Sequence record: PZ445432.1
Direction: 5' to 3' (one strand)
Length of the DNA stretch: 64,000 nucleotides
DNA from: a phage
Below the pieces are notes generated by a model, which was given only the letters and a program-made list of their open reading frames with translations, had not been told where the DNA came from and searched no databases. Each line of letters opens with the position of its first letter. Position 1 is the first letter of the stretch. A program made the position numbers and the translations under genes. Of this stretch, positions 30,774 through 46,271 are shown piece by piece.

Positions 30774-30781
30774 AAATTCAT

Positions 30782-31405: not shown

Positions 31406-31642
31406 ATGCGTAATTTTGTAGTAAAGAATGATTTTAACCGTGCTAGCACCCATAAGTCCGCTAGAGATTATACACGACTTTCTAGTCATGAGGTAATGGA
31501 TACCTGTTATGAAGAGCTGGAAGATAACTGGAATGAATGGCCAGACTTTTCTATGGAAGAAAACTGGGATGTTAGTGAAGATATGCTTCCTGGTTTTAAA
31601 GACCCCAAGAAGTGGGAGTCTATTAAAGAGACAGCTCTTTAA
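31406..31642 (+). CDS. hypothetical acidic protein
   Basis: 78-aa ORF. Confidence 0.45.
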   Translation: MRNFVVKNDFNRASTHKSARDYTRLSSHEVMDTCYEELEDNWNEWPDFSMEENWDVSEDMLPGFKDPKKWESIKETAL

Positions 31643-31670
31643 TAGTTTTCTACACAATAAAGGATAAGTT

Positions 31671-32372
31671 ATGAAAGTAAAACCATTTGGTATGCTAGAT
31701 ATTGAATCTCTAGGAACTCCGGGGGATTGTGGTACTACTCATATCGCAATGCCTTCTTTCGCTTTTGTGGCTATGCATGGGATTGATAAAGACCCTGACT
31801 TAGTATTTGCTACTTTGGATGTGCAGGATCAGCTTAATTCTGGTGCCAAAGTTACAGCATCTACTCTAGCATTCTGGATGGATCAAGCTAAAAATAGCCC
31901 GTCTGCTATTCACATTATGGAAGCTATGAAGGAACGTAATCCAAAACTGATTGCCTTCCAAAATGGTAAACATCATTGCACTACTAAATTAGGCTCAAAC
32001 TATGCTGCCTTCTCTATGGCTCAAAATATTATGGAGTTGGCTCTAGGCGAAAATGCTTTGTATTATGGCAATGGCCCAGAGTTTGATATGACTATCTACT
32101 CTGCAAACACGTTCCATGCTGGAACCAATGAAGAGGTAGTTCCGTGGAAATTCTGGAATTTAGGCAATGTTCGATCTCTTCGTAATCTCTGGATGCAAGC
32201 GGGTTATAGTTACAAAGATCTAGAGGCTGAAGGTATTAGCTGGGCAAAAGCTAAAATGGAGAAGATGGACACCATTCGTTATGGGATCTATCCGGTTAAG
32301 CACGACCCAGCATTCGATGCCCTAGTTGAGGGCTATTGTGTTGCAGCTATGATCGAAAAAATGAAAATTTGA
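31671..32372 (+). CDS. hypothetical protein
   Basis: 233-aa ORF; an N-terminal LDIES segment resembles a DEDD exonuclease motif but this is unsupported. Confidence 0.45.
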   Translation: MKVKPFGMLDIESLGTPGDCGTTHIAMPSFAFVAMHGIDKDPDLVFATLDVQDQLNSGAKVTASTLAFWMDQAKNSPSAIHIMEAMKERNPKLIAFQNGKHHCTTKLGSNYAAFSMAQNIMELALGENALYYGNGPEFDMTIYSANTFHAGTNEEVVPWKFWNLGNVRSLRNLWMQAGYSYKDLEAEGISWAKAKMEKMDTIRYGIYPVKHDPAFDALVEGYCVAAMIEKMKI

Positions 32373-32443
32373 TTTGCTTCCGGCTCCAAAATTCTGTATA
32401 ATATATTTATAAATTTGAGAAAACAATAAAAGGAAAAACAAAT

Positions 32444-32626
32444 ATGCCAGTATCTAAAAATGTTCGTAAAAATGGTAAGAAAGCTACTCGTAATCTGGGT
32501 ATCCGTCGTATGGCCGAACGTCAATCAGGTGTCCAGAAAATCTTTGATCTGTTAAATCGTGCTAATCCTAAAATTGATAACAGTAATGATACTGTTCTGC
32601 GCACTCTGCTGGCAATTGGTCTGTAA
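32444..32626 (+). CDS. hypothetical small basic protein
   Basis: 60-aa ORF downstream of a promoter-leader cassette. Confidence 0.45.
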   Translation: MPVSKNVRKNGKKATRNLGIRRMAERQSGVQKIFDLLNRANPKIDNSNDTVLRTLLAIGL

Positions 32627-32679
32627 TAGATCAAATTTAAACAAATTCAAATCTCAAACTTCATATAAGGAAGCAAATA

Positions 32680-33318
32680 ATGACTACTCGTATTTCTAAA
32701 ACTCGCGCTCTGGCAACTATCAAATCTCTGGAAGCTAAAATCCGTAAAGCTGCTGAACAGCAGGTTCTGATCGCTGTTGGTGAAGGTAAGGATAAAAATA
32801 AGGTTGTAGTTGGCGCTGCAATCGAAGTAGACGATCTGTCCGCCCGTATTAAGGCAGATTTCCAATCTCTCCTGGATATGATGTCCCAGCGTGATCGTAT
32901 CAAAGCTGCTCTGATTAAGAGCAATGCGGAAACAATCGTTGAGATTGGCTCTCGTAAGATGACTGTTGCGGAAGCAATTGAAGCTAAGCGTTCTATGGAA
33001 CTTAAAGCCCAACTGCTGGCTAACATGCGTAAGCAGTTCCAAGCCGCTACGGCTAAGTTTAATACGCAGAAAGCACAGTTTGATGCTAAATATGAGCGTT
33101 TGCAGGATAGCATGGCTACCCGCGATAAGAAAACTTCCGAAGATGAAGTTAAAATGCAGCTCAACCTGCTGGAACTCAAGAATACTCCATTCTTGATTGA
33201 TCCGCTGGAACTGGAGAAGCTGATTAAGCAGCATGACGAGGAATACCAGGACTTTGCAACAAATGTTGACTTTGTTCTGTCCGAGTCTAACGCCTCTACC
33301 TTCATTGAAGTAGAGTAA
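32680..33318 (+). CDS. hypothetical coiled-coil protein
   Basis: 212-aa ORF with host-optimal codon usage and heptad-like Ala/Lys/Glu/Gln-rich sequence. Confidence 0.5.
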   Translation: MTTRISKTRALATIKSLEAKIRKAAEQQVLIAVGEGKDKNKVVVGAAIEVDDLSARIKADFQSLLDMMSQRDRIKAALIKSNAETIVEIGSRKMTVAEAIEAKRSMELKAQLLANMRKQFQAATAKFNTQKAQFDAKYERLQDSMATRDKKTSEDEVKMQLNLLELKNTPFLIDPLELEKLIKQHDEEYQDFATNVDFVLSESNASTFIEVE

Positions 33319-33760
33319 TAATTTAAAAGCTAGTAAATCGGTAGACGAAAGCCCAAGCATCTTACCTCGCAGCAGCGGTTGAAATACGAGGTTAAATAAG
33401 ACCGCTGACCATACTATAAAGTATAATCTATTGGAGATTATGTTTATTACATCAGACATTTAATCTGACACGTAAAAACAAAGCGTCGTTGATATTACCG
33501 ACACAACTTCAAAGATCAACATTTAAGTATGAAAGCTGAAAAGTTTAAAGAACTCAAACTTCTAAACTTCTAAAGCTAAAAGATGCAAAGTATTCGTTGA
33601 TGATTCAAACCCTAGATCAAAGGTACATGGCTCATAAGATATGGCCTGTGGCGCCTCTAGGCTGTTTATCGGTTTACTAGTTTCACAATTTAAAAATGTA
33701 TTTGCTAATTTATTAAGTTATCTGTATAATATATTTTTAAATTGATGAAACGAGGCTATT

Positions 33761-34582
33761 ATGGGTAAATTACAAAAACAAATACTACCATATATAGATT
33801 ATATCCGAGAAATTATAGAGTATAATCCCTATACTGGTAAATTATTCTATAAGCCTAATAAATATAAGAATAAAACTTGGCATACTTTATATGCTGGGAG
33901 AGAAATATGTAGTAAGAACTCTGATGGGTACATCAGAGTTAGTTTGCTCTTAGATAATAAACCCACAATTATTTATGGACACCGAATAGCGTGGCTCCTT
34001 CACTATGGGGAGGAACCACCTGCTATGATTGATCATATAAATACTATACCGTGGGATAATAGAATTATTAACCTAAGAGAGACAAATTTTAAGTTAAACA
34101 GACTTAATACTAACAAAACGGTAGGTGTAGAGCTGCTGCCAGAAGGATTTGTGTACAGCATTACATTAGGTGAAAAGTTTTTTGTATCCCCCGGCTTCCC
34201 CACTTTCGAACAAGCTAAAGTGGAAAGAGAAAAACTAGTAAATGGTTTATGTAATGCAGAAATTGGGAAGCAGACCAATATTCTAATAGACGATGTTAGA
34301 GATTTACCTGAAATGTCCATTATTTGTCGTACAGTTATAGGTGCGCTGGAACTATCAGATGTGTTTAGTTTCACAGGATCCTATTTATTTATGGACTCAG
34401 ATTTAGGAGATTCAGAGGTACAAGGAAAAGATTTATTAGATCATATACTATTATTAGGTCAAAGACCCCTAAAAGTGATTCTAGTAACATCTAATCCTGT
34501 TGACGCAGAGTACATGAGAGGTACTCTTACGTCTTATGGATACCGAGAAAATCCCAATAGATTAGAATATGATCTATTTTAA
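33761..34582 (+). CDS. HNH homing endonuclease
   Basis: GHRIAWLLHYGEEPPAMIDHINTIPWDNRIINLRETN HNH motif. Confidence 0.7.
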   Translation: MGKLQKQILPYIDYIREIIEYNPYTGKLFYKPNKYKNKTWHTLYAGREICSKNSDGYIRVSLLLDNKPTIIYGHRIAWLLHYGEEPPAMIDHINTIPWDNRIINLRETNFKLNRLNTNKTVGVELLPEGFVYSITLGEKFFVSPGFPTFEQAKVEREKLVNGLCNAEIGKQTNILIDDVRDLPEMSIICRTVIGALELSDVFSFTGSYLFMDSDLGDSEVQGKDLLDHILLLGQRPLKVILVTSNPVDAEYMRGTLTSYGYRENPNRLEYDLF

Positions 34583-34594
34583 GGAGTAAAAAGA

Positions 34595-35044
34595 ATGAAG
34601 GCAGCTTTGCTTTTAGTAGCTGCCCTTACCTTCAGCTTCAATAGTCATGCGACCTACGACTCAAAGCAGATTGATTGCATTGCAAAAAATATCTACTTCG
34701 AAGCACGAGGTGAGGGCATAAAGGGAATGACGGCGATTGCACACGTTACTAAAAACCGTGTTAACTCTGGTACTTTTCCTGATTCTTACTGTAAAGTAGT
34801 ATATCAGTCTAACCAGTTCTCTTGGGTATCTAAGAGACCAAAAGTTGATAAAACTGATGAGGCTTGGAAAACCGCCAAGAATTTAGCTAGAGTGATATAC
34901 TACGTTGATTCACCACAAGATCCTACACATGGAGCGTTATACTTCCATAGTGGTAAAGATAAACCGCGCTGGACAAAGAAGTTTAAGAAAACAACTAAGA
35001 TTGAGGGACATACATTTTATAAGCCTGTTGTCACTAAAACTTAA
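34595..35044 (+). CDS. secreted cell-wall hydrolase (SleB/Hydrolase_2-like)
   Basis: Signal peptide MKAALLLVAALTFSFNSHA, then NIYFEARGEG ... AHVTKNR ... YCKVVYQ.NQFSW blocks. Confidence 0.55.
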   Translation: MKAALLLVAALTFSFNSHATYDSKQIDCIAKNIYFEARGEGIKGMTAIAHVTKNRVNSGTFPDSYCKVVYQSNQFSWVSKRPKVDKTDEAWKTAKNLARVIYYVDSPQDPTHGALYFHSGKDKPRWTKKFKKTTKIEGHTFYKPVVTKT

Positions 35045-35052
35045 AAATTTAT

Positions 35053-35081
35053 TTGCTTAAATACTTAAACTTCTGTATAAT
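35053..35081 (+). promoter_or_regulatory. sigma70-like promoter
   Basis: TTGCTT, 17 nt, TATAAT. Confidence 0.5.
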
Positions 35082-35112
35082 ACTTTCATAAATTAATGAG
35101 AGGAAGCGAAAT

Positions 35113-35283
35113 ATGAAAAACTTGATCGTCATTGGTGTTAACACTCGCGGTATTCGTACTACGAAAACTGTTAAAACTTCTAACGTTGCTGAGATCACTA
35201 CGAACCCTAAAAAGTTTGATTTCGCCAAAGTCTCAGCAGTTATGACAGAACAATCTTTTAACCAAGCGTTAGGAATGAAATAA
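35113..35283 (+). CDS. hypothetical small protein (56 aa)
   Basis: ATG preceded by GAGAGGAAG; stop overlaps the next start (TAATG). Below the track's size cut-off. Confidence 0.4.
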   Translation: MKNLIVIGVNTRGIRTTKTVKTSNVAEITTNPKKFDFAKVSAVMTEQSFNQALGMK

Positions 35284-35726
35284 TGGGAGAGAATATTTTA
35301 GATGTTTTGCGTAGAGCTTTGCAGGATTCTAAGTTTAATGGTTCTGATAAAGAAGTCGCTAAAAGCTATCAGACCATAATCGGGGATCTTCAGCGTATTG
35401 ATAAAGATTTCATCACTTCTGAACAATTTGTGTCTTATCTCAAAGCTCAACTAAAAAGCATTAACCAGATGAAAGCTAAACTTCATGGTCAAGATCTTGA
35501 TAGTTATAGCTTGCAGTCCGCTCAGTATGAATACATTCTAAATAAGTGGTTGCAGGAGTATCTGCCTCCTCAGTTATCTGATACTGAGATTCGTAAATAC
35601 TTTGCAGAATTAGTTAAGCTAAACCCTGGAATTACAAAAGGTATGCTGATGAAAGCGATTAAGGAAGAATTTCCTGGGCGTTATGATGGTGGTACTGCTG
35701 CTCAGATTGCTGGCGAATTTAATTAA
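35283..35726 (+). CDS. GatB/YqeY-domain protein
   Basis: 147-aa ORF with the YqeY-like pattern (YLP..LS..E ... G..KG..M ... DG..A) next to the tRNA cluster. Confidence 0.55.
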   Translation: MGENILDVLRRALQDSKFNGSDKEVAKSYQTIIGDLQRIDKDFITSEQFVSYLKAQLKSINQMKAKLHGQDLDSYSLQSAQYEYILNKWLQEYLPPQLSDTEIRKYFAELVKLNPGITKGMLMKAIKEEFPGRYDGGTAAQIAGEFN

Positions 35727-35734
35727 AAATTTAT

Positions 35735-35763
35735 TTGCTAAATGCCTATAAATTCTGTATAAT
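35735..35763 (+). promoter_or_regulatory. sigma70-like promoter facing an ORF-free RNA region
   Basis: TTGCTA, 17 nt, TATAAT. Confidence 0.5.
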
Positions 35764-35769
35764 ATATTA

Positions 35770-36559
35770 ATAAATTAGAGAACAGCGGGCCGATTACGCT
35801 GAGTGCAGAATCCAAACCGGAGTGCATTGAATAGAGTCGGTGGGTTAGTTGTAAAACTAGTACACAGTGGGCGGCAATCCCGGTTAGTGGCTAGAACGTG
35901 TAAAATGGGGCGTCTGAAACCTCTCCCCTAAACTCTTCTCTAGTTTATAAATAGTGGGGTGTGGAAATCACTTATGTAGTAACACTGCCGATCTAGTATA
36001 AACGGTATTATCAAGCCGTAACTGGTGGAAGATGTAGGTTCGAATCCTACGATCGGTAAGAACTGGATAACTGGTGCTTTTAACGTAAAAGCTTCCGAGG
36101 TTAGTTGCGCACTGCCTAAACCACGCGGTAGTTGGTTCCAGACTAACCAACCAGTCTGCTGAATAGTTTTATTACGATTTAACTATGTCCAGGCTAAAGA
36201 AGAACTTTAGAAGGTATTCTAGGTGGTGAAGTTTTTCCTCCATATCGGAGTAGTTTTTCAAGCTACCAACAAAGTGGGAAATGCTGACATGAGAGATGTC
36301 ACTAATGGTGCACAATAGCACAGGTAATTCGCGATAACTCCTGTTGAGTAGCAGCAAAAGGCGGGAAGTCATGACCCCAAGCCTAACCGAGTCCTCAATA
36401 TACCGCAGGACATAACCACTAAGTCACCCTGACTTAAACTGGAAAATAATAGACGTTACTGTATTTTGTCTTGAAATACTTAATGAGTGAGACTTATGAC
36501 TCTCCCGGTATCGTCTGTATTTTTAAGAGTTTTTACGAGAGTTCTTAAAAATACTTAAA
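35770..36559 (+). ncRNA. ORF-free transcribed region, possible stable small RNAs
   Basis: About 800 nt with no plus-strand ORF, downstream of a consensus promoter; contains several hairpins and tRNA-like fragments. Confidence 0.3.
35987..36058 (+). tRNA. tRNA-like element (possible pseudo-tRNA)
   Basis: Acceptor stem GCCGATC/GATCGGT and T-arm GTAGG-TTCGAAT-CCTAC are intact, but no canonical D or anticodon stem could be folded by hand. Confidence 0.3.
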
Positions 36560-36634
36560 CGGGGTGTAGTCTAAGGGAGAGGCAGGAGTCTTCTAAATTC
36601 CTTTATGCAGGTTCGAATCCTGTCACCTCGGCCA
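36560..36634 (+). tRNA. tRNA-Arg (anticodon TCT)
   Basis: Acceptor CGGGGTG/CACCTCG, anticodon stem GGAGT/ATTCC with loop CTTCTAA, T-arm GCAGG-TTCGAAT-CCTGT, encoded CCA. Confidence 0.6.
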
Positions 36635-36668
36635 ATTTTATTAACTGTAACTAAAACAAAGGAAATAT

Positions 36669-37616
36669 ATGTTTAATACTAAAAATATGAAAGAACTGAC
36701 TTCTGAGCAAAAAGTAATTCGCACTATTAAACGTTGGGGTATTGGTTCTGTAGTTGGTTTAGCAGGTTTAATCCTAGCTTTTAATTCATATACTATTGTT
36801 TCTGATGGTACAGTTAAAACCCAAACATTTCTGGGTAAAGTAGATCCTAACCCAGTATTACCTGGTTTCCATCTTGTAAACCCATTTGCATCTTTCGATA
36901 CTTTTAGTACAAAAGATATTGCTGTAAAATTAGATAAACTTCAGGTTCCTAGCCAGGATAAGTTTAAATCCACTGTTGACCTGACTGTTATGTTGCAGTT
37001 TGATGGTTCTAAGGCACCGATCAACCGTATTAATGCAGGTACTCAGGATCAGGCGTTAGACAAATATGTTACTGAAAAATTACTGTCTACCATCCGTGAG
37101 TTTGGTAAGTCTGTACCTAAAGCACAAGATTTGTTTGATGCTAAAATTCAAGCACAATTACAAACTGCAATTCAACAGGAAGTTGAAGAGTATGCACGCC
37201 CTTATGGTTACACAGTTAAGCAAGTGTTCCTTCAGGATATTACATTGCCACCGGTAATTATGGAACAGGTACAGAATACCAAAGTTCGTGAAGAACAAGT
37301 TAATGCTGCGAAAGCTGAATTGGCTCGTGTTGAACAAGAAGCACAGCAGAAGGTTAAACAAGCAGAAGCAGATCGTGAAGCTCGTAACAACCAAGCTATT
37401 GCAAACGAACGTGATGCAGATGCTAAACTGTATGCAGCTAAGAAAGAAGCCGAAGCTAACGCCGCTCTGCAACGTACTATTACTCCTGAGATGATTCGCT
37501 GGAAACAACTAGAAGTTGAAATGACTCGTGCTCAGAAGTATCAAGGTGGTGTGCCTCAGACTGTAGTAGGTACTGGTTACGATGGTCAAATGATCATGGA
37601 TATGCGTAACAAGTAA
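36669..37616 (+). CDS. SPFH/band-7 (prohibitin/HflC-like) membrane protein
   Basis: N-terminal transmembrane segment, then a long Ala/Glu/Gln-rich coiled coil typical of SPFH proteins. Confidence 0.5.
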   Translation: MFNTKNMKELTSEQKVIRTIKRWGIGSVVGLAGLILAFNSYTIVSDGTVKTQTFLGKVDPNPVLPGFHLVNPFASFDTFSTKDIAVKLDKLQVPSQDKFKSTVDLTVMLQFDGSKAPINRINAGTQDQALDKYVTEKLLSTIREFGKSVPKAQDLFDAKIQAQLQTAIQQEVEEYARPYGYTVKQVFLQDITLPPVIMEQVQNTKVREEQVNAAKAELARVEQEAQQKVKQAEADREARNNQAIANERDADAKLYAAKKEAEANAALQRTITPEMIRWKQLEVEMTRAQKYQGGVPQTVVGTGYDGQMIMDMRNK

Positions 37617-37639
37617 TAGTTACACGTAATCTTCGAAGT

Positions 37640-37680
37640 AAGCCCTGTGTTCCCTGGAGAGCGCAGGGCTTTTCTGTTTT
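37640..37680 (+). terminator. rho-independent terminator
   Basis: AGCCCTG ... CAGGGCT hairpin followed by TTTTCTGTTTT. Confidence 0.55.
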
Positions 37681-37842
37681 AAGGTAGAGGATAAGTGTGT
37701 CTCTTTGGTCACTCAGCTATGACAAATACTTTACACTATATCACATTGAAAATCAAGTGGGGATAACAATTTTGGGGTCTATCCACTTACCTGCTACCCT
37801 TAAGCATCCTGTTATTTTCCTCTAAAAAGTTAAAAAATTCAA

Positions 37843-37871
37843 TTGCTTGAATGCTAAATTCTCTGTATAAT
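37843..37871 (+). promoter_or_regulatory. sigma70-like promoter
   Basis: TTGCTT, 17 nt, TATAAT. Confidence 0.5.
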
Positions 37872-37903
37872 ATACTTATAAATTTGAGAGAGAGGAATCT
37901 AGT

Positions 37904-38422
37904 ATGACTGTTGATGAACTAACAGAACATCTCTTATCTAGAGGGTTTGATACAGATAAGTATCATTGCTGGTTAAGTCCGGAAGGATGGCTAACAGTCC
38001 CGTTGTATGACTTCTCTGGGATGTTGAGAGGCTATCAGACTTATAATCCTTCTGCTCCAAAAGGTCATGGTAAGTGCCCCTTTGAAGCTAAATATTTTAC
38101 TTATTCAACTACACAGTGTGTATGGGGATTAGAAACTCTCAATGGAGATGAAAAAGTAGTATTGATTGCTGAATCTGTATTTAAGGCAGTTGCGTTACAT
38201 AACGCTGGTTATCCAGCCCTGGCAATGTTGGGTTCTTCCCCCGGAAAAGCATTGTTAAAGCAATTGAAATTATTACCTTTTAAATTGGTAGCTGTCGGAG
38301 ATAATGATCCTGCGGGTGAAAAATTTGCTAGAAAATTAAACGGCTTTGTTTCTCCTGTAGATGTAGATGAGATGTCTACCGAAAACTTGAAAAATTTTCT
38401 TGCTATGAAGCTAAATTTCTAA
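37904..38422 (+). CDS. Toprim-like domain protein
   Basis: VVLIAESVFKAVALHNAGYPALAMLG ... VAVGDNDPAGEKFARKL resembles a TOPRIM fold. Confidence 0.45.
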   Translation: MTVDELTEHLLSRGFDTDKYHCWLSPEGWLTVPLYDFSGMLRGYQTYNPSAPKGHGKCPFEAKYFTYSTTQCVWGLETLNGDEKVVLIAESVFKAVALHNAGYPALAMLGSSPGKALLKQLKLLPFKLVAVGDNDPAGEKFARKLNGFVSPVDVDEMSTENLKNFLAMKLNF

Positions 38423-38442
38423 TATAATATATTTATAAATTC

Positions 38443-38531
38443 GGAAGAATAGCATAACGGTATTGCAGCAGATTGCTAATCTGTCGGTTTGAAATATAGC
38501 CTTGTGGGTTCGATTCCCACTTCTTCCGCCA
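38443..38531 (+). tRNA. tRNA-Ser (anticodon GCT), type II
   Basis: Acceptor GGAAGAA/TTCTTCC, 3-bp D stem, anticodon loop TTGCTAA, long variable arm, T-arm GTGGG-TTCGATT-CCCAC, encoded CCA. Confidence 0.7.
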
Positions 38532-38537
38532 AATTCT

Positions 38538-38615
38538 GGTTCTCAAGCTCATATGGTATGAGCACCCAGCTCATAACTGGAAGGTACGTAGGTTCGAATC
38601 CTCGGGGAGCCACCA
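38538..38615 (+). tRNA. tRNA-Met/Ile2 (anticodon CAT)
   Basis: Acceptor GGTTCTC/GGGAGCC with G-U pairs, D stem GCTC/GAGC, anticodon loop CTCATAA, TTCGAAT T-loop, encoded CCA; T stem has mismatches. Confidence 0.5.
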
Positions 38616-38634
38616 AATTAAATAAGGACAACTA

Positions 38635-38823
38635 ATGGAATTATTCATAGTTTCTGTTAAATTTGCACAAGATAGAGAACGTTCGGATGAGTTTAAACAA
38701 GGGTACAGACTAGTAAAGGCTACATCTGAACTCCATGCTATGGACAAAGTAGTAGACTATATGTATAATGTAGAAGATGTTTACTACGTCAATGCTTTAG
38801 AAGCCTCAAAAGTAATTGACTAA
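38635..38823 (+). CDS. hypothetical protein
   Basis: 62-aa ORF with RBS AAGGA. Confidence 0.45.
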   Translation: MELFIVSVKFAQDRERSDEFKQGYRLVKATSELHAMDKVVDYMYNVEDVYYVNALEASKVID

Positions 38824-38832
38824 GGAGACTAT

Positions 38833-39018
38833 ATGTCTAAGTTTCAAGAACTCAAGCAAGAGCTAGAAGAATGTGCCTGCCCTGAGTGTAGAGGAATTGG
38901 TGAAAGTTCTGATGCAGAAGCAGTGGATACTTTTTGCAATATCTGGGTTTGCCCAAATTGCAAGGGTACAGGTATTAATCCTAACTGTGGTATTTCTCTA
39001 GATATTGAAAGAGGATAA
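38833..39018 (+). CDS. hypothetical zinc-ribbon protein
   Basis: CPECRG ... CPNCKG double CxxC; RBS AAGGAG. Confidence 0.45.
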   Translation: MSKFQELKQELEECACPECRGIGESSDAEAVDTFCNIWVCPNCKGTGINPNCGISLDIERG

Positions 39019-39120
39019 TACCTGTGAAACTAAAAGATTATTATATTGGTTGGTTTGTGGGACTAGTAGTAGGATTTTCACTAGGCTATAATATGTATCA
39101 ACTAATAAACTGATTACATG

Positions 39121-39193
39121 GGGGTGTAATCGAATTGGCATAGGTACTGTACTTAAAATTCAGGTTTTGTGGGTTCGAATCCCAGCGAGGCGT
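39121..39193 (+). tRNA. tRNA-like element (anticodon-like loop TAA; acceptor stem does not pair)
   Basis: Good T-arm (GTGGG-TTCGAAT-CCCAG) and anticodon-like hairpin CTGTA-CTTAAAA-TTCAG, but no 5'/3' acceptor pairing found; a -10 TATAAT lies upstream. Confidence 0.25.
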
Positions 39194-39241
39194 AACTGCC
39201 TGGTGTGATAGAGGCATCATTCCACTAATATTGGAAAACTA

Positions 39242-39472
39242 ATGAAACGAAAATTAAAAAAATCTTATATAATTAAGATAAATAAGCTAAGAAGTAGGGC
39301 AAAAGGATGGCCACTTCGGATATTAATTGCGGATAACCATATTAGATACCATGCGGAACAACGTCATTATAAACAGTGGGAGTCATACTGCCGCTCAAAA
39401 GCAGGTCGTTTAGATGGATCTTATGAGTTTCTATTTGGTAAGAAGCCTACTAGAGTAGCTTTAGGTAATTAA
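39242..39472 (+). CDS. hypothetical basic protein
   Basis: 76-aa ORF. Confidence 0.4.
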   Translation: MKRKLKKSYIIKINKLRSRAKGWPLRILIADNHIRYHAEQRHYKQWESYCRSKAGRLDGSYEFLFGKKPTRVALGN

Positions 39473-39477
39473 TACTT

Positions 39478-39568
39478 GGAAGAGCAAATCGAATTGGCGA
39501 CGAAAACCGCTTGGAAAGTGGCTGACCGGTAAAACGGCTTGAGAGTTCAAATCTCTCCTCTTCCGCCA
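39478..39568 (+). tRNA. tRNA-Ser (anticodon GGA), type II
   Basis: Acceptor GGAAGAG/CTCTTCC, anticodon loop TTGGAAA, long variable arm, T-arm GAGAG-TTCAAAT-CTCTC, encoded CCA. Confidence 0.6.
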
Positions 39569-39580
39569 AACAATTTATAT

Positions 39581-39675
39581 GGTAGGTCAATCCAACGGCT
39601 GGCGCTGGACTCCGACTTGAAATCGGTTGATCGTAGTGATACGGTGTAAGGGTTCGATCCCCTTACCTACCTCCA
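39581..39675 (+). tRNA. tRNA-Ser (anticodon TGA), type II
   Basis: Perfect acceptor GGTAGGT/ACCTACC, anticodon loop CTTGAAA, variable-arm hairpin CGTA-GTGA-TACG, T-arm AAGGG-TTCGATC-CCCTT, encoded CCA; D-loop unusually long. Confidence 0.5.
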
Positions 39676-39812
39676 AATCTTGAAGTATGCCGGAATCGGT
39701 AGACGGGGCTGCCTAAAAGGTTTATAGGGAACATCCACTCCCTGCAACATACCTCATAAAGCGGCTGAGATAAATGGTCTATCTCGTGAAGGTTCAAGTC
39801 CTTCTGCTTCTT
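39676..39812 (+). other. tRNA-like or structured RNA region, unresolved
   Basis: Contains a T-arm-like hairpin GAAGG-TTCAAGT-CCTTC and D-loop-like AATCGGTAGA, but no acceptor pairing could be found. Confidence 0.2.
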
Positions 39813-39927
39813 GATACATCTATGGCTCAAAGTGTAACGGTGCTATTTGATGCTCTTGGTAAGACTTCCCCGACATGCGTTCGGGAGTAAGCTGCTAAGA
39901 CTAGAGTAGAAGAGTTTCTGAGAGCCG

Positions 39928-40046
39928 CCACAATTGAAAATTCGTACTCGTCTTGAGCTGCGTGCAATAGGAGATAACTTGATTAGTATTCTAGAACATG
40001 CTAATTGAGGATGGTTTCGCTAACCCTGCGAGTTTTCAATTGTGGC
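39928..40046 (+). repeat. 13-bp perfect inverted repeat bracketing a 93-nt spacer
   Basis: CCACAATTGAAAA at 39928-39940 and TTTTCAATTGTGG at 40034-40046; the right arm overlaps the tRNA-His 5' end. Confidence 0.6.
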
Positions 40047-40117
40047 TATATCATAATTGGTTAATGATCCTGATTGTGAATCAGGCCTATGTGGATTCGA
40101 ATTCCACTAGCCACCCC
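40042..40117 (+). tRNA. tRNA-His (anticodon GTG)
   Basis: Acceptor GTGGCTA/TAGCCAC, D stem TCAT/ATGA, anticodon stem CCTGA/TCAGG with loop TTGTGAA, T-arm GTGGA-TTCGAAT-TCCAC, encoded CCA. Confidence 0.7.
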
Positions 40118-40143
40118 AAATTAACTTAAATAGGAAATAAAAT

Positions 40144-40341
40144 ATGGCTGATTTCTGCAAACAATGCTCCATTGATATGTGGGGCAGAGATACTGGTGAT
40201 CTTTCTGGTTTGATTACAGAAGCCGAAGTCAAAGAAGGTTATGGTGCAGTTGTGGTTTGCGAAGGATGCGGAGTTATTCGAGTAGATCATGAAGGCAAAC
40301 GTTTAGAAGAACCGGAAAATTTAGGAGAAACAAATGAGTAA
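40144..40341 (+). CDS. hypothetical zinc-ribbon protein
   Basis: CKQC ... CEGCG motif; RBS AGGAAA. Confidence 0.45.
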   Translation: MADFCKQCSIDMWGRDTGDLSGLITEAEVKEGYGAVVVCEGCGVIRVDHEGKRLEEPENLGETNE

Positions 40342-40570
40342 TGCTTTAATTAGTGAAATTATGTTAACACGTCTTGCAGAACTGCAAACTCTTCGAGATG
40401 AATCTCAGAATAACTTATCCTACCATAAACAGATGGTAGATACTCTTACTACTCGTATTGAAACTTACGAGCGTGATATTGCAGCATTACAAGCTCTTTT
40501 CTCCGTATCAGCACCAGATACGTTAGAACAGCCTGCTGTATCTCAGCCAGTAGAGACAGCATCTAGTTAA
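40334..40570 (+). CDS. hypothetical protein
   Basis: 78-aa ORF with RBS AGGAGA. Confidence 0.45.
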   Translation: MSNALISEIMLTRLAELQTLRDESQNNLSYHKQMVDTLTTRIETYERDIAALQALFSVSAPDTLEQPAVSQPVETASS

Positions 40571-40579
40571 TAGCATTTT

Positions 40580-40655
40580 TGGAGTGTAGATCAATTGGCA
40601 GATCGTCGGCCTCTGACTCCGAAGGTTCCTGGTTCGATCCCAGGCACTCCAGCCA
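40580..40655 (+). tRNA. tRNA-Gln (anticodon CTG)
   Basis: Acceptor TGGAGTG/CACTCCA, D stem GATC/GATC, anticodon loop CTCTGAC, T-arm CCTGG-TTCGATC-CCAGG, encoded CCA. Confidence 0.6.
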
Positions 40656-40661
40656 AATAAT

Positions 40662-40737
40662 TGGAGAGTAGTGTAACGGTTAGCACAACGGCCTTTGACT
40701 CCGTTAATGGTAGGTTCGATTCCTCCTTCTCCAGCCA
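40662..40737 (+). tRNA. tRNA-Gln (anticodon TTG)
   Basis: Acceptor TGGAGAG/TTCTCCA, anticodon loop CTTTGAC, T-arm GTAGG-TTCGATT-CCTCC, encoded CCA. Confidence 0.6.
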
Positions 40738-40744
40738 AAATAAT

Positions 40745-40819
40745 GCGTGATTAGTTCAGTGGCTAGAACAACTGGCTTCCAACCAGTAGACACGAGTTCG
40801 ACTCTCGTATCCCGCACCA
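40745..40819 (+). tRNA. tRNA-Gly (anticodon TCC)
   Basis: Acceptor GCGTGAT/ATCCCGC (one mismatch), D stem GTTC/GAAC, anticodon stem ACTGG/CCAGT with loop CTTCCAA, T-arm ACGAG-TTCGACT-CTCGT, encoded CCA. Confidence 0.65.
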
Positions 40820-40833
40820 AATAAGGAATCTCT

Positions 40834-41085
40834 ATGCACGTTTTTGAGTTTCGTAATAAAAGTACCAATAAACGAGTTATTGTTATTGGGGAAACATATC
40901 GAGCATATGAACAAACTGACGGCTCTGTTATCTTGAATGATGAGAAAGGGGGTTTTAGCTTTTATCCAGAAGAACCTTATGAAGAGTTTCGAAAACAATT
41001 TAACCTAGACTGGAGAAAGCATTTAAACACTGTTGCTTCATCTGTAGTACTGCCAACTACCAGTACTGTACTATCTAATGGCTGA
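40834..41085 (+). CDS. hypothetical protein
   Basis: 83-aa ORF with RBS AAGGAA. Confidence 0.45.
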   Translation: MHVFEFRNKSTNKRVIVIGETYRAYEQTDGSVILNDEKGGFSFYPEEPYEEFRKQFNLDWRKHLNTVASSVVLPTTSTVLSNG

Positions 41086-41242
41086 TAACCTAAAAGTCAA
41101 GATCGACAAACAAAAGAAACGTGTAGAAGTAGAGATTGGTGAAGAACGTGTAGCCTTCACCTTTGAATTTCTACAACAAATGGCAATGACAGTTATGACT
41201 GATAAGTCTCCTGTTATTGAAAAAGAAATCCCGTTGAAATAA
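41078..41242 (+). CDS. hypothetical small protein (54 aa)
   Basis: ATG overlapping the upstream stop; below the track's size cut-off. Confidence 0.3.
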   Translation: MADNLKVKIDKQKKRVEVEIGEERVAFTFEFLQQMAMTVMTDKSPVIEKEIPLK

Positions 41243-41250
41243 CGGGTTCT

Positions 41251-41337
41251 GCTGGGTTGGCAGAATGGTTGAATGCACCTGATTTGTAATCAGGAGGAGT
41301 AATCCCGTTGCAGGTTCGAATCCTGTGCCCAGCACCA
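41251..41337 (+). tRNA. type II (long variable arm) tRNA, anticodon reads TGT (Thr?)
   Basis: Acceptor GCTGGGT/GCCCAGC, 3-bp D stem, perfect anticodon stem CCTGA/TCAGG with loop TTTGTAA, variable-arm hairpin GGA-GTAA-TCC, TTCGAAT T-loop, encoded CCA. Confidence 0.5.
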
Positions 41338-41351
41338 ATTTAAGGACTATT

Positions 41352-41519
41352 ATGTTTAAACTGTTAGTAGTTATCTGGTATAGTCAATCAAATAGAGCGA
41401 ATACCTCCCACGTTATAGACTTTACTACTAAAAATGAAGCTGAAAAAGCATATGCTAATTTAATAGAACGCAATAAAGAATCTCGTAGTATAGTTTATGA
41501 AGTGACTAAACTTTATTAA
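41352..41519 (+). CDS. hypothetical protein
   Basis: ATG with RBS AAGGAC just after the tRNA; the track ORF begins earlier, inside the tRNA. Confidence 0.4.
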   Translation: MFKLLVVIWYSQSNRANTSHVIDFTTKNEAEKAYANLIERNKESRSIVYEVTKLY

Positions 41520-41527
41520 AAATTCAT

Positions 41528-41556
41528 TTGCTTTCCCTCTTATTTATTGTTATAAT
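41528..41556 (+). promoter_or_regulatory. sigma70-like promoter
   Basis: TTGCTT, 17 nt, TATAAT. Confidence 0.5.
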
Positions 41557-41586
41557 ATTTATATAAATTAATGAGAGGGAAACCAA

Positions 41587-41877
41587 ATGAAACGTTATCT
41601 TTCTGTTATGTTCCAAACCGGCGGCCAAAGATACACCTATGAATTTCCACCTTCCTGGAAAATCAGGGAAGGTGATCAAATAGTTGTGTTGACACCGCGT
41701 GAAGAATATAAAGTAGTGACGGTTAAACAAGTATTTCCAAAAGATCATGAACCAGCTATAGGCATCCGATATAAGATGATTCATGGCGTGGTTCGTCAAG
41801 TACCACGAACTGAGGTAGAAGTAGATAATACTGGAGAAACTAAATTCCATTATACTTCTTACTTAGACAGTGTGTGA
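41587..41877 (+). CDS. hypothetical protein
   Basis: 96-aa ORF directly after a promoter-leader cassette. Confidence 0.5.
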   Translation: MKRYLSVMFQTGGQRYTYEFPPSWKIREGDQIVVLTPREEYKVVTVKQVFPKDHEPAIGIRYKMIHGVVRQVPRTEVEVDNTGETKFHYTSYLDSV

Positions 41878-41892
41878 TGTAAATATTTTAAT

Positions 41893-41969
41893 GCTTCGGT
41901 AGCTTAGCGATCTAAAGCACTCGGCTGATAACCGAGAGATCAGGGGTTTAAATCCCTCCCGGAGTACCA
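41893..41969 (+). tRNA. tRNA-Ile (anticodon GAT)
   Basis: Acceptor GCTTCGG/CCGGAGT, D stem GCTT/AAGC, anticodon stem CTCGG/CCGAG with loop CTGATAA, T-loop TTTAAAT, encoded CCA. Confidence 0.65.
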
Positions 41970-42065
41970 AATCTAGGAATTAAGACTATGCGTCCAGGAA
42001 AGTTTAAAAAAGCTAGTTGGTCTAAAGAGTACAAAGAATACTTACTTAGCCTAGTAAAACGTAAT

Positions 42066-42141
42066 AGTTAGTTGGCAGAGTGGTTATGCGCCTCCTTCAT
42101 ACGGAGCGACTACAGTGGTTCAAATCCACTACTAACTACCA
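42066..42141 (+). tRNA. tRNA-Met/Ile2 (anticodon CAT)
   Basis: Acceptor AGTTAGT/ACTAACT, anticodon loop TTCATAC, T-arm AGTGG-TTCAAAT-CCACT, encoded CCA. Confidence 0.6.
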
Positions 42142-42154
42142 AACAGGAGATCTA

Positions 42155-42523
42155 ATGAAAGCGTATCAAAATCTTAAATCTGGCGTAATTAATATTGTTC
42201 ATAATAATCAGATTATTCAACTGTACTCTAAAGATGGTGAACTTAAACAAAAGGTTCTAGTTGAAGATCTAGATGGTATCACACCTCATTTTGACCCAGA
42301 ATCCTTTCGTGAAGTCAAAGTGGAAGTCGCCCCTCAAATTGAAGGTGGTCAACACCTAAATGTCAATGTGTTAAGTCGTGATCAGCTTTTGGATGCGCAG
42401 AAACATCCTGAAAAATACCCTCAATTAACTATCCGTGTTTCAGGGTACGCTGTGCGTTTTAACGCACTGACGCGTGAACAGCAGAACGACGTTATTAGTC
42501 GTACATTTACTCAGGCGATGTAA
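42155..42523 (+). CDS. grcA: autonomous glycyl-radical cofactor (GrcA/YfiD-like)
   Basis: C-terminus [12 protein letters not shown] ... [37 protein letters not shown] closely matches the GrcA/pyruvate formate-lyase glycyl-radical domain; RBS AGGAGA. Confidence 0.8.
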
Positions 42524-42604
42524 TGGGGCTTGGATACGGTTTCTACGAACTACGTAAGGTAGTCGAGCAAACTCCATTTATCTCCCAAGTTTTAGGAGAA
42601 ATGT

Positions 42605-42919
42605 GTGGATCGAGCATTAAGACGTCATCACCGGCAACGTGTAAAGAACAACCGCAAGAAGTATTGGACAGTCTTCCCACATGAAGAAAGCCCTAAACGG
42701 TTAGGTATTATCACTACTACTCCTTGTATCTGTTCTTGTTGGATGTGCGGGAACCCTCGCAAACACTTTAAGAATAGTAAAGCAGGGATGAAAACCTCGG
42801 AGATTAGGAAAATGGAAGCAATGATTACGGATATTTCAAATGATGAATTTGATGGCTTCGTAGGATTCGGGGAAGATATTAGCTCGGACTGTTTCGAAGA
42901 TGAGCTCCCAGGTCTATGA
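42605..42919 (+). CDS. hypothetical protein
   Basis: GTG start 6 nt after AGGAG; basic N-terminus and a CxCxC segment. Confidence 0.4.
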   Translation: MDRALRRHHRQRVKNNRKKYWTVFPHEESPKRLGIITTTPCICSCWMCGNPRKHFKNSKAGMKTSEIRKMEAMITDISNDEFDGFVGFGEDISSDCFEDELPGL

Positions 42920-42928
42920 TTAATAACA

Positions 42929-42966
42929 AACCCCAGCTATTGAATAAGTAGTCTGGGGTTTTTCTG
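42929..42966 (+). terminator. rho-independent terminator
   Basis: ACCCCAG ... CTGGGGT hairpin followed by TTTTTCTG. Confidence 0.55.
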
Positions 42967-43040
42967 TATACAGGTAGATAATTTATGTATAATAAAATTC
43001 ATCCACATTAGGTTAATTCAAAAGACTTAATGGAGGTAAT

Positions 43041-43388
43041 ATGAGCCGTACTTATCGTAGACAAACTGGTGATCAGTGGTGGAAGTCTAAAGCTAATTAC
43101 ACCCAGGGATATACTTTCCTCAAAGCAAGTGACTACTACATTCGTGTTACTTATGCTAAATCCTGGGATGAGGTAGAACAGGAAATGGAAGAAGCAACCA
43201 TTCGTAATGAGAAAAAGGATGGTTATAGCTGGAATTCTGTTAGTAAGAATGTTAAGTGGCATTCTAATAAAATGGTTCGTCAAGGAAATCGTCAAGAACT
43301 CCACCGCGTGATGAAAGACCCAGAAAATTACGACTATAATCGCGATCATGACATGCGTAAGCGTGGGTTACGGTGGTGCTATGACTAA
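43041..43388 (+). CDS. hypothetical protein
   Basis: 115-aa ORF with RBS GGAGG. Confidence 0.45.
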   Translation: MSRTYRRQTGDQWWKSKANYTQGYTFLKASDYYIRVTYAKSWDEVEQEMEEATIRNEKKDGYSWNSVSKNVKWHSNKMVRQGNRQELHRVMKDPENYDYNRDHDMRKRGLRWCYD

Positions 43389-43405
43389 ATTCTGAAATAA
43401 TTCAT

Positions 43406-43434
43406 TTGCTAAACCTCTCTTTTCTTGCTATAAT
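43406..43434 (+). promoter_or_regulatory. sigma70-like promoter
   Basis: TTGCTA, 17 nt, TATAAT. Confidence 0.5.
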
Positions 43435-43464
43435 ATATTTATAAATTGATGAGAGAGGTTTGAA

Positions 43465-43746
43465 ATGAAAACTCGTCTAGACTGTGCTGTTCATGTTCTT
43501 GAACATGATGTTGTGGGAACCTGTATGTCTTATCACGAAGCAGGTCGTTTAATTAAAGAACGTGTGGCAGATGTATGTGGGTTGAAGATTACTGCTGAGG
43601 AAGCTGATGATCTTCTAGACCAGGCACTGGGGAAAACAGAAATATTCCTCTGCGATTCCTGCTCCTGGTGGTGTGAAGCTCACGAACATTCCTTCAACGA
43701 TTATGATGTATGCCGTGACTGTAATGAGGGGGACCATGATGAATAA
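43465..43746 (+). CDS. hypothetical Cys-rich protein
   Basis: 93-aa ORF with CDSCSWWCEAH and CRDCNEGDH segments. Confidence 0.45.
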   Translation: MKTRLDCAVHVLEHDVVGTCMSYHEAGRLIKERVADVCGLKITAEEADDLLDQALGKTEIFLCDSCSWWCEAHEHSFNDYDVCRDCNEGDHDE

Positions 43747-44038
43747 GTTTATTGTTGCACTGATGGTTTCAGCAGTTAGTTTCGGTTCTCTAGCATCTAC
43801 CAAAGTTTTTATGAAAAACGGTAATGTTAGGGTACAACAGAATGGTATTATTACCGAGTATGGTAAAGTGCGTGATATTAAAGAACGTAATGGCAAAGTA
43901 GAAATATATACTAATAAAAACTTCTCTACTCCAGCCGTTACTGTTAGCAAACGCGGTGAAATAACCACTCAACGTACTAATAGCTCTAGTTCTTTTACTT
44001 GTCGTTATGATTGCGACTTTGAAGGTGAAGATGAATAA
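43736..44038 (+). CDS. hypothetical secreted protein
   Basis: Internal ATG after GAGGGGGA followed by a signal peptide (MMNKFIVALMVSAVSFGSLAS); the track ORF starts earlier. Confidence 0.45.
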   Translation: MMNKFIVALMVSAVSFGSLASTKVFMKNGNVRVQQNGIITEYGKVRDIKERNGKVEIYTNKNFSTPAVTVSKRGEITTQRTNSSSSFTCRYDCDFEGEDE

Positions 44039-44381
44039 TTTAGATCCTAGAATTAAATTTGCAATTACAGAAATCCAAGATCAAATTGATGAAGACTTCA
44101 CTGTTTGGTCAAGGTCCGGTAACGGGGAATACTGCCAGCTTTATAGCATGAAAATGGGTATCTCAATTGAGCTTAATATCAACTCTGAAGGTAGAGTAGA
44201 AGCCCAACCCATGTTCAGTGTTCCAGGCTTCTCTGGATTTGTTGCAGGTATGAAATTGTGTCTACCAAATAACCATCTTCATCGAGTTATTTGTCAACTA
44301 GAGACTATTAAACACTTCTTGCCAGAAGGTAATATTAATGACTACTACCATGAAGTTGTAGCAGCTCATATGATGAAATAA
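44031..44381 (+). CDS. hypothetical protein
   Basis: ATG preceded by GAAGGTGAAG and overlapping the upstream stop. Confidence 0.4.
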   Translation: MNNLDPRIKFAITEIQDQIDEDFTVWSRSGNGEYCQLYSMKMGISIELNINSEGRVEAQPMFSVPGFSGFVAGMKLCLPNNHLHRVICQLETIKHFLPEGNINDYYHEVVAAHMMK

Positions 44382-44403
44382 TGCAAACGTCGGAGAGAAG
44401 AAC

Positions 44404-44700
44404 GTGAAAAGACTAAACATCAACAGCACAGTGCAGATTCCAGCAACTAAGGATATTTTAACCTTCCTACGGAGTGAAAACGCTCAGTTTTGGCATGATC
44501 ATGTTGTAAAGAACGGTAGTACTCCAGATGTAGTTGCCTTTGCTAAAAAACGTATCGAGGAGTACAAAGATCCAGAGATTAAAGATGGTATGATTACTAT
44601 GCAGTTGTGGGTAGCTATGCAAACCTTTGGCCCCACCATGTGTTTAGGAAATACTCCATTATTTACAAATATTTTAATTAATGAAAAGGATTTGAAATGA
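44404..44700 (+). CDS. hypothetical protein
   Basis: GTG start preceded by GGAGAGAAG. Confidence 0.4.
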   Translation: MKRLNINSTVQIPATKDILTFLRSENAQFWHDHVVKNGSTPDVVAFAKKRIEEYKDPEIKDGMITMQLWVAMQTFGPTMCLGNTPLFTNILINEKDLK

Positions 44701-44981
44701 TTGTTTCTCCATTTGCTCTTTGGTTCGTCATTGGGTCTATAGTTGCTATTTATAGTCTAATAGATGATTTATTCATCTCCAAGAATAAAGATGTGTTCTT
44801 ATATGTTGCACACAAAACACGCCCATCAGACCTAGCACCTCTTGATGATAAAACGCTACTAAGATGTGCTAGAGCTGCAATATTTATTATGGATATTCTG
44901 CTAGGACCAGCATCTGTATTTTTCTATTACCGAAAAACTCGTAATATGAAAAAATTTAAAGCAGAAATGCAGAATAACTAA
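44697..44981 (+). CDS. hypothetical membrane protein
   Basis: 94-aa ORF with two hydrophobic segments. Confidence 0.4.
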   Translation: MIVSPFALWFVIGSIVAIYSLIDDLFISKNKDVFLYVAHKTRPSDLAPLDDKTLLRCARAAIFIMDILLGPASVFFYYRKTRNMKKFKAEMQNN

Positions 44982-45091
44982 AGAACTCGCGTAGGACCGA
45001 GTTGCGTCACCTGCAACTGTTACGGATAAGGGAGTCGTGCCCCTTAGTGCGGTAAGTGGTGAGTTGGTCGCTGACCCTAACTGGAGATGAT

Positions 45092-45436
45092 ATGACTATA
45101 TTACTAATTCTTGTTACTACCTGGTTTTTAATCGGTGCTGGATATGCAATAGCTATTATTAGACATTTGGATGAACATTCTGCTGAATGGTTTGTTAAAT
45201 ATCTACGTATAGACAACAAGGATCACGAGTTTAAAGATGAAAAGCAGAAAAAAGCAGTTGAAGAAATGACAGGCGAAGAATGTTTATTCTATATGCGTGC
45301 AATAGGATTCTTAGGATTATTTAGTGCTGGCCCACTAGGTTTTACCATAGCTCCTTATAAAGAAACAGTAGACGATATTAAGTTATGGAGAAATGCAGGG
45401 GTACTACGCAAAGCTAGAGAAACTAATATTACATAA
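45092..45436 (+). CDS. hypothetical membrane protein
   Basis: ATG after GGAGATGA; N-terminal transmembrane helix (ILLILVTTWFLIGAGYAIAII). Confidence 0.4.
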   Translation: MTILLILVTTWFLIGAGYAIAIIRHLDEHSAEWFVKYLRIDNKDHEFKDEKQKKAVEEMTGEECLFYMRAIGFLGLFSAGPLGFTIAPYKETVDDIKLWRNAGVLRKARETNIT

Positions 45437-45480
45437 GATTGACACTAAGTCAGCTTACTAGCAAAAGCAAATAATGACAA

Positions 45481-45516
45481 AGCCCAGCCTGCACTTTTGC
45501 AACTGGGCTATTTTTA
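45481..45516 (+). terminator. rho-independent terminator
   Basis: AGCCCAG ... CTGGGCT hairpin followed by ATTTTT. Confidence 0.55.
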
Positions 45517-45590
45517 TAATAAAATTTTAGTTGCTTAGATGCCCAAACTTTTGTATAATATGTTTATAGATTGAGGCAAGAGGATTAAAT

Positions 45591-46271
45591 ATGAGGATTA
45601 TTTCTAAGTTCGCCGATGTGTATGATCTGCAGAACAGTTTGTTTGACCCAGATCGTGTGTGGGAACGTAAAACTGAAGAGCTAACAATAAAAGCCCCAGA
45701 TGATGACAACTATACGATCATGCAAGAACGTAGGATTGCTCGTATTGAGGGAAAGATTGGTTACTTTAAAATTTTGCCTTTCTTCCTAGCTGGGGAGATT
45801 TACTGGTTATACCACATTGATGTACTGGATACCCAAGTAAAAACCTTCAGTTTGGACGAGGCGTTAGAAATTTTGGAGGAGAAGGGATGGTCAACAGGGT
45901 TTTCTTTGCTAGACATAAATAGGGGGAAGCCAAAAGAGTCTATCTTAGCATGGCAAGAAGAAGTTACCCCCAAAGCTAAAGAAGCCTTAACTGAGTTAAG
46001 AGTACCCTTAGCAATTCTAGACTCAGTAGTTCCAAATGATAAAGATAACAATAAATACTTCAAGGTTATAACTAATCCACGCCTACACCTATCAGGAATA
46101 CCGTGGCAGAGTGTGGAACCTAACTTATATCGACTGCACCAAAGAATCGAGCAGTATATTTGGGGTGTACTAGGAACTGGTGAGCCTGATATGATTACTG
46201 TGTCAGATAAAGACCGCCTAGCAGCACATGGATTTGATACGGTTACGTCATTCAGGAATATGAAAAGATGA
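45591..46271 (+). CDS. hypothetical protein
   Basis: 226-aa ORF downstream of a promoter-leader cassette. Confidence 0.5.
   Translation: MRIISKFADVYDLQNSLFDPDRVWERKTEELTIKAPDDDNYTIMQERRIARIEGKIGYFKILPFFLAGEIYWLYHIDVLDTQVKTFSLDEALEILEEKGWSTGFSLLDINRGKPKESILAWQEEVTPKAKEALTELRVPLAILDSVVPNDKDNNKYFKVITNPRLHLSGIPWQSVEPNLYRLHQRIEQYIWGVLGTGEPDMITVSDKDRLAAHGFDTVTSFRNMKR

Follow-up and report, generated by a model that had tools for sequence, protein, structure and literature searches.

A chimeric tRNA-Leu(UAA) sequence, very probably a pseudogene, at the junction of a 5,041-bp deletion in a variant of Escherichia phage HildyBeyeler (Bas33)

We analyzed a 64,000-nucleotide stretch of phage DNA (the window), in which an element with a leucine-type anticodon hairpin had been noticed whose two ends do not pair. 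The element region lies within the tRNA cluster of a T5-like phage. The element is very likely a nonfunctional chimeric tRNA-Leu(UAA) pseudogene that marks a 5,041-bp deletion in a variant of HildyBeyeler (Bas33). The allele is new, but the kind of event is well known; tRNA-region deletions are familiar in T5-like phages. Among the explanations offered by the initial annotation, that of a pseudogene was borne out, as the element is the junction of a deletion between 15-bp repeats.

The window was compared with public phage genomes. It matches Escherichia phage HildyBeyeler (BASEL Bas33, MZ501074.1, Tequintavirus) at 100.0% except for one missing block, while the next-best phages are only 90-98% identical. 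The aligned blocks are listed in Table 1; the two that flank the junction were also recovered by local BLAST. The missing block of 5,041 bp corresponds to record positions 71,667-76,707 (equivalently 71,652-76,692), and the sequence TGGGTTCGAATCCCA stands in the reference at both deletion endpoints, at 71652-71666 and 76693-76707. The left breakpoint falls within the T arm of the intact tRNA-Leu(UAA), and the right breakpoint is 46 nt downstream of tRNA-Leu(UAG), where a conserved intergenic element carries a T-arm-like hairpin (UGGG-UUCGAAU-CCCA). When direct repeats were listed for the reference tRNA region, the closest repeats to the Leu(UAA) T arm were the right-endpoint copy and the Leu(UAG) T arm, each 90% identical over 20 nt. 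Reading of the copies themselves gave an exact shared run of 15 nt for the right-endpoint copy versus 13 nt for the Leu(UAG) T arm. The 5' part of the element is thus that of an intact gene, its 3' flank is contiguous with a distal locus, and the breakpoints lie in a direct repeat, as in a deletion scar.

Table 1. Coordinates of the junction, its parent sequences, and adjacent reading frames
Feature	Window	Strand	MZ501074.1	Basis or remark
Aligned block	1-14300		32483-46782	100.0%
Aligned block	14200-39184		46682-71666	100.0%
Aligned block	39170-64000		76693-101523	100.0%
5' 65 nt of tRNA-Leu(UAA) gene	39120-39184	+	71602-71666	100% identity; Rfam local match
Crossover microhomology TGGGTTCGAATCCCA, 15 bp	39170-39184	+		100%-identity BLAST blocks overlap here
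3' part of intergenic element, GCG-AGGC(GUAACU)GCCU hairpin ... GAGGCAUCA	39185-39219	+	76708-76742	100% identity
Intact tRNA-Leu(UAA), bas33_0091, 77 nt			71602-71678	Annotated in reference
29-aa ORF, bas33_0090 homologue	39024-39113	+		Immediately upstream of the element, contains TATAAT; ORF list and reference annotation
76-aa ORF, bas33_0111 homologue	39242-39472	+		First gene past the junction
Spurious 40-aa antisense ORF across the junction	39098-39220	-		ORF list

The exact 15-bp repeat at the breakpoints suggests short-homology recombination, single-strand annealing, or replication slippage. Such an event would have fused the 65-nt 5' portion of tRNA-Leu(UAA) with the intergenic element's 3' half. 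The opposite direction, in which the window is ancestral and an insertion added 5 kb to HildyBeyeler, is a formal possibility and nothing more. We consider it exceedingly improbable, as the intact 3' end of tRNA-Leu(UAA), the tRNA block, and the complete downstream element are common to hundreds of T5-like phages, and an insertion would need one chimera to yield two complete functional elements.

We then compared the element with the structure expected of a tRNA. From position 39120, the window reads, as RNA, GGGGGUG-UA-AUC(GAAUUGGCAUA)GGU-A-CUGUA(CUUAAAA)UUCAG-GUUUU-GUGGG(UUCGAAU)CCCAG, followed by CGAGGCGUAAC. The 65-nt remnant holds the acceptor 5' strand GGGGGUG, a D arm with a 3-bp stem, an anticodon arm, a 5-nt variable loop, and the T arm as far as CCCA. 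The anticodon hairpin (CUGUA-CUUAAAA-UUCAG) presents the anticodon UAA and contains one U.U mismatch; the T arm is GUGGG-UUCGAAU-CCCAG. In the Rfam local alignment, the D arm, the anticodon arm (7-nt loop), and the T arm (UUCGAAU loop) are all present, as in a canonical tRNA. The description of a tRNA-like element with a leucine-type anticodon hairpin and a T arm therefore stands: the bases at 39121-39193 are as it gave them, and all three internal arms align. On the sequence comparison, the resemblance to a tRNA is not a matter of chance, because every base of 39120-39184 matches the initial 65 nt of the intact tRNA-Leu(UAA) gene. An alignment with the tRNA-Leu genes of related phages, which the initial annotation had proposed, gives this same correspondence.

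The boundaries of the element require correction. It had been placed at 39121-39193; the true 5' end is 39120 (GGGGGTG), and the tRNA part stops at 39184. Positions 39185-39193 are foreign and contain no mutated acceptor strand, and the bases that had been taken for the 3' strand, CGAGGCG, derive from the intergenic element downstream of tRNA-Leu(UAG). That the acceptor ends cannot pair was correctly seen. Against the 3' bases (G)CGAGGCG, 1 to 4 of 7 positions of the 5' strand pair in the four registers tried (2 of 7 in the GGGGTGT/CGAGGCG register), short of a seven-bp acceptor stem. The G49-C65 pair of the parent becomes G.G in the chimera. Where the parent ends in ...CACCCCU-A-CCA, the window has GCGAGGCGUAAC, so that the discriminator and the 3' CCA are missing. 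The A73 discriminator is a major LeuRS identity element; it is present in the parent and went with the 3' end. The long variable arm of bacterial class II tRNA-Leu is absent as well, the variable region being 5 nt (GUUUU), and this is likewise so in the intact parent.

The tRNA prediction programs agree with this picture. ARAGORN called ten tRNAs in the window and Rfam, at its gathering threshold (29 bits for RF00005), called eleven, none of them at the element. At a relaxed threshold, Rfam matched 39125-39187 to model positions 6-65 of 71 with 23.3 bits (E-value of 0.25 in a 7.1-kb search and 0.0056 in one of 161 nt). The alignment omits model positions 1-5 and 66-71, which form the acceptor stem. 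As a control, the same tools applied to the reference recover the intact gene, which ARAGORN calls as tRNA-Leu(taa) and Rfam matches over model positions 1-71 with 54.6 bits. Single-sequence minimum free energy folding gave no cloverleaf for either the element or the intact parent, with z-scores of -0.8 and -1.0, respectively; the covariance model was used in its place. The initial annotation had also left room for a canonical tRNA with other boundaries, and neither ARAGORN nor Rfam found one in the window. The chimeric structure explains the disagreement between the tRNA finders and the eye.

The parent gene clarifies what was lost. The window is identical to it as far as ...GGGTTCGAATCCCA and then switches to distal sequence. 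The 3' end of the parent reads ...GUGGGUUCGAAUCCCAC-CACCCCU-A-CCA and closes an acceptor stem of G1.U72 followed by six Watson-Crick pairs, then A73 and CCA. The last 12 nt (CCACCCCU-A-CCA), which supply the acceptor 3' strand, A73, and CCA, are missing from the window. The parent gene type is functional, because the depositors of AJ604531 note that altering the anticodon turns the 77-nt tRNAL2 (UUA) of Salmonella phage 5 into an effective amber suppressor.

Several observations concern the leucine tRNAs of these phages more generally. At window position 39149 (tRNA position 30), the Leu(UAA) of HildyBeyeler and the window has a U30.U40 mismatch versus G30.U40 in tRNAL2. Both phage leucine tRNAs (UAA, and UAG at MZ501074.1, excerpt L003, 11063-11139) are 77 nt long with a 5-nt variable loop and lack the class II long arm, and both are recorded by depositors as efficient amber suppressors after an anticodon swap. 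The phiR201 record labels its Leu(UAG) gene "tRNA-Pseudo-TAG," and in some relatives this position is taken by a long-arm Leu(UAG) gene.

RNase P and LeuRS both require the acceptor/T minihelix, and LeuRS also requires A73. Because the chimera lacks the acceptor helix, the A73 discriminator, and CCA, it would give no mature or charged tRNA product, with neither an RNase P cut nor LeuRS charging, and would persist as an inert scar. The intact D, anticodon, and T arms could instead belong to a functional noncanonical tRNA or tRNA-like RNA in which unusual processing, a distant 3' half, or pairing in trans makes up the acceptor stem; in its favor, "tRNA-like RNAs with unknown functions" (RNA1-3, AJ604530) are encoded in T5-like tRNA regions. 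We looked downstream for a strand that would complete the acceptor stem, and found only chance-level sites or sites within other tRNA or RNA1 structures. Within 650 nt, about 30 7-mers pair with GGGGGUG at 6 or 7 of 7 positions, a number expected by chance. Two sites pair at all seven: the one at 39736, about 600 nt downstream, is inside the separately folded RNA1 element, and the one at 39668 is inside tRNA-Ser(UGA). Furthermore, the arrangement is not conserved, being confined to this variant, and the otherwise identical reference has the intact parent with acceptor stem, A73, and CCA. A functional RNA of this kind is thus very unlikely. The unusual processing event suggested in the initial annotation is unsupported, and the unpaired 3' end belongs to a different genetic element. 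The annotation's suggestion of bases misread by hand was mistaken; the sequence letters are as given.

Promoter-like sites occur at 38400-38428 and 38741-38769, the former coinciding with a repeated early-promoter family, and early transcripts probably start at these two sites. The chimera would still be transcribed within early polycistronic transcripts of the tRNA region. The promoter-like -10 reported upstream of the element does exist, as TATAAT at 39087-39092, but it is uninformative: no -35 partner accompanies it, and the hexamer is about as frequent as chance predicts (106 copies in the window versus about 90 expected). We rejected a promoter at 39087 on both counts.

The junction also creates a reading frame on the opposite strand (Table 1), which has no entry in the protein collection searched. 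A gene caller might annotate an antisense ORF of this kind, and an analogous one is annotated in phage SelmaRatti. Neither "tRNA" nor "unusual tRNA" nor "antisense ORF" is an appropriate annotation for the locus.

We confirmed that the junction is genuine. It is present in two separate run assemblies from Logan, each 100% identical to the window: a 3,273-bp contig from ERR15816151 (window 37899-41171) and a 2,387-bp contig from ERR15816150 (window 39018-41392), both found through lookup of the 76-aa ORF at 39242-39472. Because the junction is in both assemblies, a one-off misassembly or edited sequence is ruled out. The two adjacent accessions, for which no citing paper was found, may represent the same phage stock. 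An artifact in the wider sense, whether repeat assembly collapse, a chimeric contig, or an edited sequence, might be suspected from flanks that are 100% identical to a public record and from a junction missing from all curated collections searched. Collapse is not expected at a 15-bp repeat, however, which is far shorter than reads or assembler k-mers, and in the two assemblies the junction is flanked by 1.3 kb and 0.15 kb on the left and by about 2 kb on the right. Breakpoints in exact microhomology are also the signature of real recombination, and an analogous deletion in Bas33 stocks has been published (bioRxiv 10.64898/2026.01.13.699316). An artifact is therefore highly improbable.

The allele itself appears to be scarce. 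None of 50,697 phage records has the exact junction, and only phiAPCEc03 among them joins both halves, though differently; it was likewise not found in IMG/VR, JGI metagenomes, or GTDB genomes, nor in complete E. coli genomes or PLSDB plasmids. Neither the literature nor the curated databases that were searched gave a match to the deletion allele. Given that no curated collection searched has the junction, the allele is rare and probably that of a laboratory stock.

The deletion removed a substantial part of the tRNA complement. The missing block carries tRNAs for Tyr, Glu, Trp, Phe, Cys, Asn, Asp, Lys(CUU), Pro(UGG), Ala, and Leu(UAG), together with nine small ORFs, one of them HNH-like. With the truncated tRNA-Leu(UAA), the variant is without 12 of about 24 tRNAs, and ARAGORN found no other copy of the lost tRNAs in the window. 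In the long ORFs of the window, TTA (26%) and CTA (21%) are the two commonest leucine codons. The variant thus misses both leucine tRNAs that read the phage's two commonest leucine codons, in addition to those for Tyr, Asn, and Lys. It is viable because the tRNA region is dispensable in the laboratory, as in classical T5 deletion mutants. Within the deleted block, the tRNA-Pro(UGG) at about 75662-75739 of MZ501074.1 is an ARAGORN call that is unannotated in the record; it abuts the end of the HNH-like CDS bas33_0107.

We also examined the right-hand partner of the junction. The intergenic element is about 105 nt long, from AAUUUGAUGG to GAGGCAUCA, and lies between tRNA-Leu(UAG) and tRNA-Ser(GGA); it is complete at MZ501074.1 76641-76746, and the window keeps only its 3' half, at 39170-39219. 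We found it in 240 phage records, of which 172 match at 99% identity or better; Klebsiella Sugarlandvirus phages carry it at about 74% identity. It sits after whichever type of Leu(UAG) gene a phage carries. Its ends are complementary (UGAUG...CAUCA), and an RNAalifold consensus of three lineages predicts, besides the T-arm-like hairpin, a closing helix and a third hairpin, and has 4 covarying pairs. Compensatory changes occur in Klebsiella and Pectobacterium-type relatives. No Rfam family matches the element, and it is unannotated in the BF23 and phage 5 records, though other stable or tRNA-like RNAs nearby are annotated there. The element may be a conserved structured RNA, which we treat as a lead and not as a finding.

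Other features of the tRNA region were noted during the analysis. ARAGORN misses three tRNAs that are annotated in the reference: tRNA-Met (CAU) at 38538-38612, tRNA-Ser(GGA) at 39479-39569, and tRNA-Ser(UGA) at 39582-39676. Rfam scores the tRNA-Met (CAU) at 38.2 bits and gives the tRNA-Ser(UGA) only a subthreshold match to its tRNA-Sec model (38.3 bits). Between tRNA-Ser and tRNA-His is an unannotated gap of 365 nt (39677-40041). Part of it, at 39682-39812, has a cloverleaf-like fold (-42 kcal/mol, z = -2.3) in which the anticodon arm is enlarged and the variable arm long, and matches the BF23 "RNA1, tRNA-like RNA with unknown functions." BF23 and phage 5 have two stable RNAs, RNAI and RNAIII, between RNA1 and tRNA-His, and by analogy the rest of the gap probably corresponds to them. 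At 35986-36059, ARAGORN calls a tRNA-Ser with the odd anticodon ACU, which Rfam scores at 39 bits; the reference has an overlapping CDS and no tRNA here. The site is about 500 nt upstream of tRNA-Arg, where BF23 annotates a stable "RNAX."

We compared the deletion with known variants of T5-like phages. T5Mos lacks 30661-38625 and T5-123 lacks 29191-32442 (PMC11464382); the same paper also describes T5 variants with tRNA-region deletions in the Glukhov collection. A laboratory variant of Bas33 with a deletion of 69,093-78,836 has also been published (bioRxiv 10.64898/2026.01.13.699316). Like the window, T5Mos, T5-123, the collection of Glukhov et al. (2018), and the Bas33 variant have lost several kilobases from this early region, consisting of dispensable tRNA genes and small ORFs. 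In contrast to T5Mos, T5-123, and the published Bas33 deletion, the endpoints and size in the window are different (5,041 bp, from the Leu(UAA) T arm to the intergenic element). An identical 18-bp T-arm repeat, TGCAGGTTCGAATCCTGT, occurs in tRNA-Arg(UCU) (window 36606-36623) and tRNA-Thr(UGU) (41309-41326). Its spacing in the reference is 9,744 bp, the exact length of the published Bas33 deletion, which implies that this deletion was also a T-arm to T-arm event. The T5 record annotates direct repeats within the 3' parts of tRNA genes.

Laboratories working with Bas33 should be aware that at least two different tRNA-region deletion variants now exist. Phage tRNAs act as counterdefenses against tRNA-cleaving immune systems such as PARIS (PMC11464382, PMC12409363), and heterogeneity among Bas33 stocks could thus alter defense phenotypes.

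Two further phages carry chimeric tRNA-like sequences at the same locus that, like the one in the window, recombined tRNA-derived repeats, and neither of these is called as a tRNA. In phiAPCEc03 (KR422353.1, excerpt L002, 1293-1369), a Leu(UAA)/Leu(UAG) mosaic of the pattern TAA-type/TAG-type/TAA-type/TAG-type occupies the same place, with both the acceptor and the anticodon stem broken. The pattern looks like the outcome of recombination between paralogues with patchy repair and deletion of the same block of about 5 kb. Unlike in the window, the crossover was between the bodies of Leu(UAA) and Leu(UAG), leaving a patchwork. In SelmaRatti (Bas34, MZ501103.1, 73834-73947), the 5' part of tRNA-Leu(UAG) is joined to the T arm of the same downstream element with the loss of about 90 bp, and the chimera is annotated as a minus-strand hypothetical protein, bas34_0094. 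Here it is Leu(UAG) that was fused to the element, and both phages represent independent events in diverged genomes.

Four independent junctions of the T-arm-core recombination type were seen, and the present case adds sequence-level evidence for conserved T-arm cores as deletion substrates. A broader proposal is that the T-arm cores of clustered tRNAs are recurrent substrates for the shedding and reshuffling of tRNA blocks, and that the right-hand element of about 105 nt is a conserved structured RNA with a T-arm mimic. We offer this combined proposal tentatively, as a possibility that we would not yet favor.

Finally, we considered how the element relates to RNAs already described in this group. 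Salmonella phage 5 tRNAL2 (AJ604531) is one base off the 65 nt of the remnant, and the genomic left flank is the same for T5-like tRNA-Leu(UAA) genes; compared with these genes (tRNAL2, bas33_0091), the window element is without the last 12 nt. RNA1, RNA2, and RNA3 of BF23 (AJ604530) and phage 5 (AJ604531) resemble the window element in having partial tRNA architecture within the tRNA region. They are annotated in both phages, and RNA1 is present at high coverage in 493 phage records. The window element, in contrast, is not a conserved syntenic stable RNA of the T5 group, as its junction is absent from the collections and only phiAPCEc03 joins both halves, in another way; it is unique to one variant and arose via truncation.
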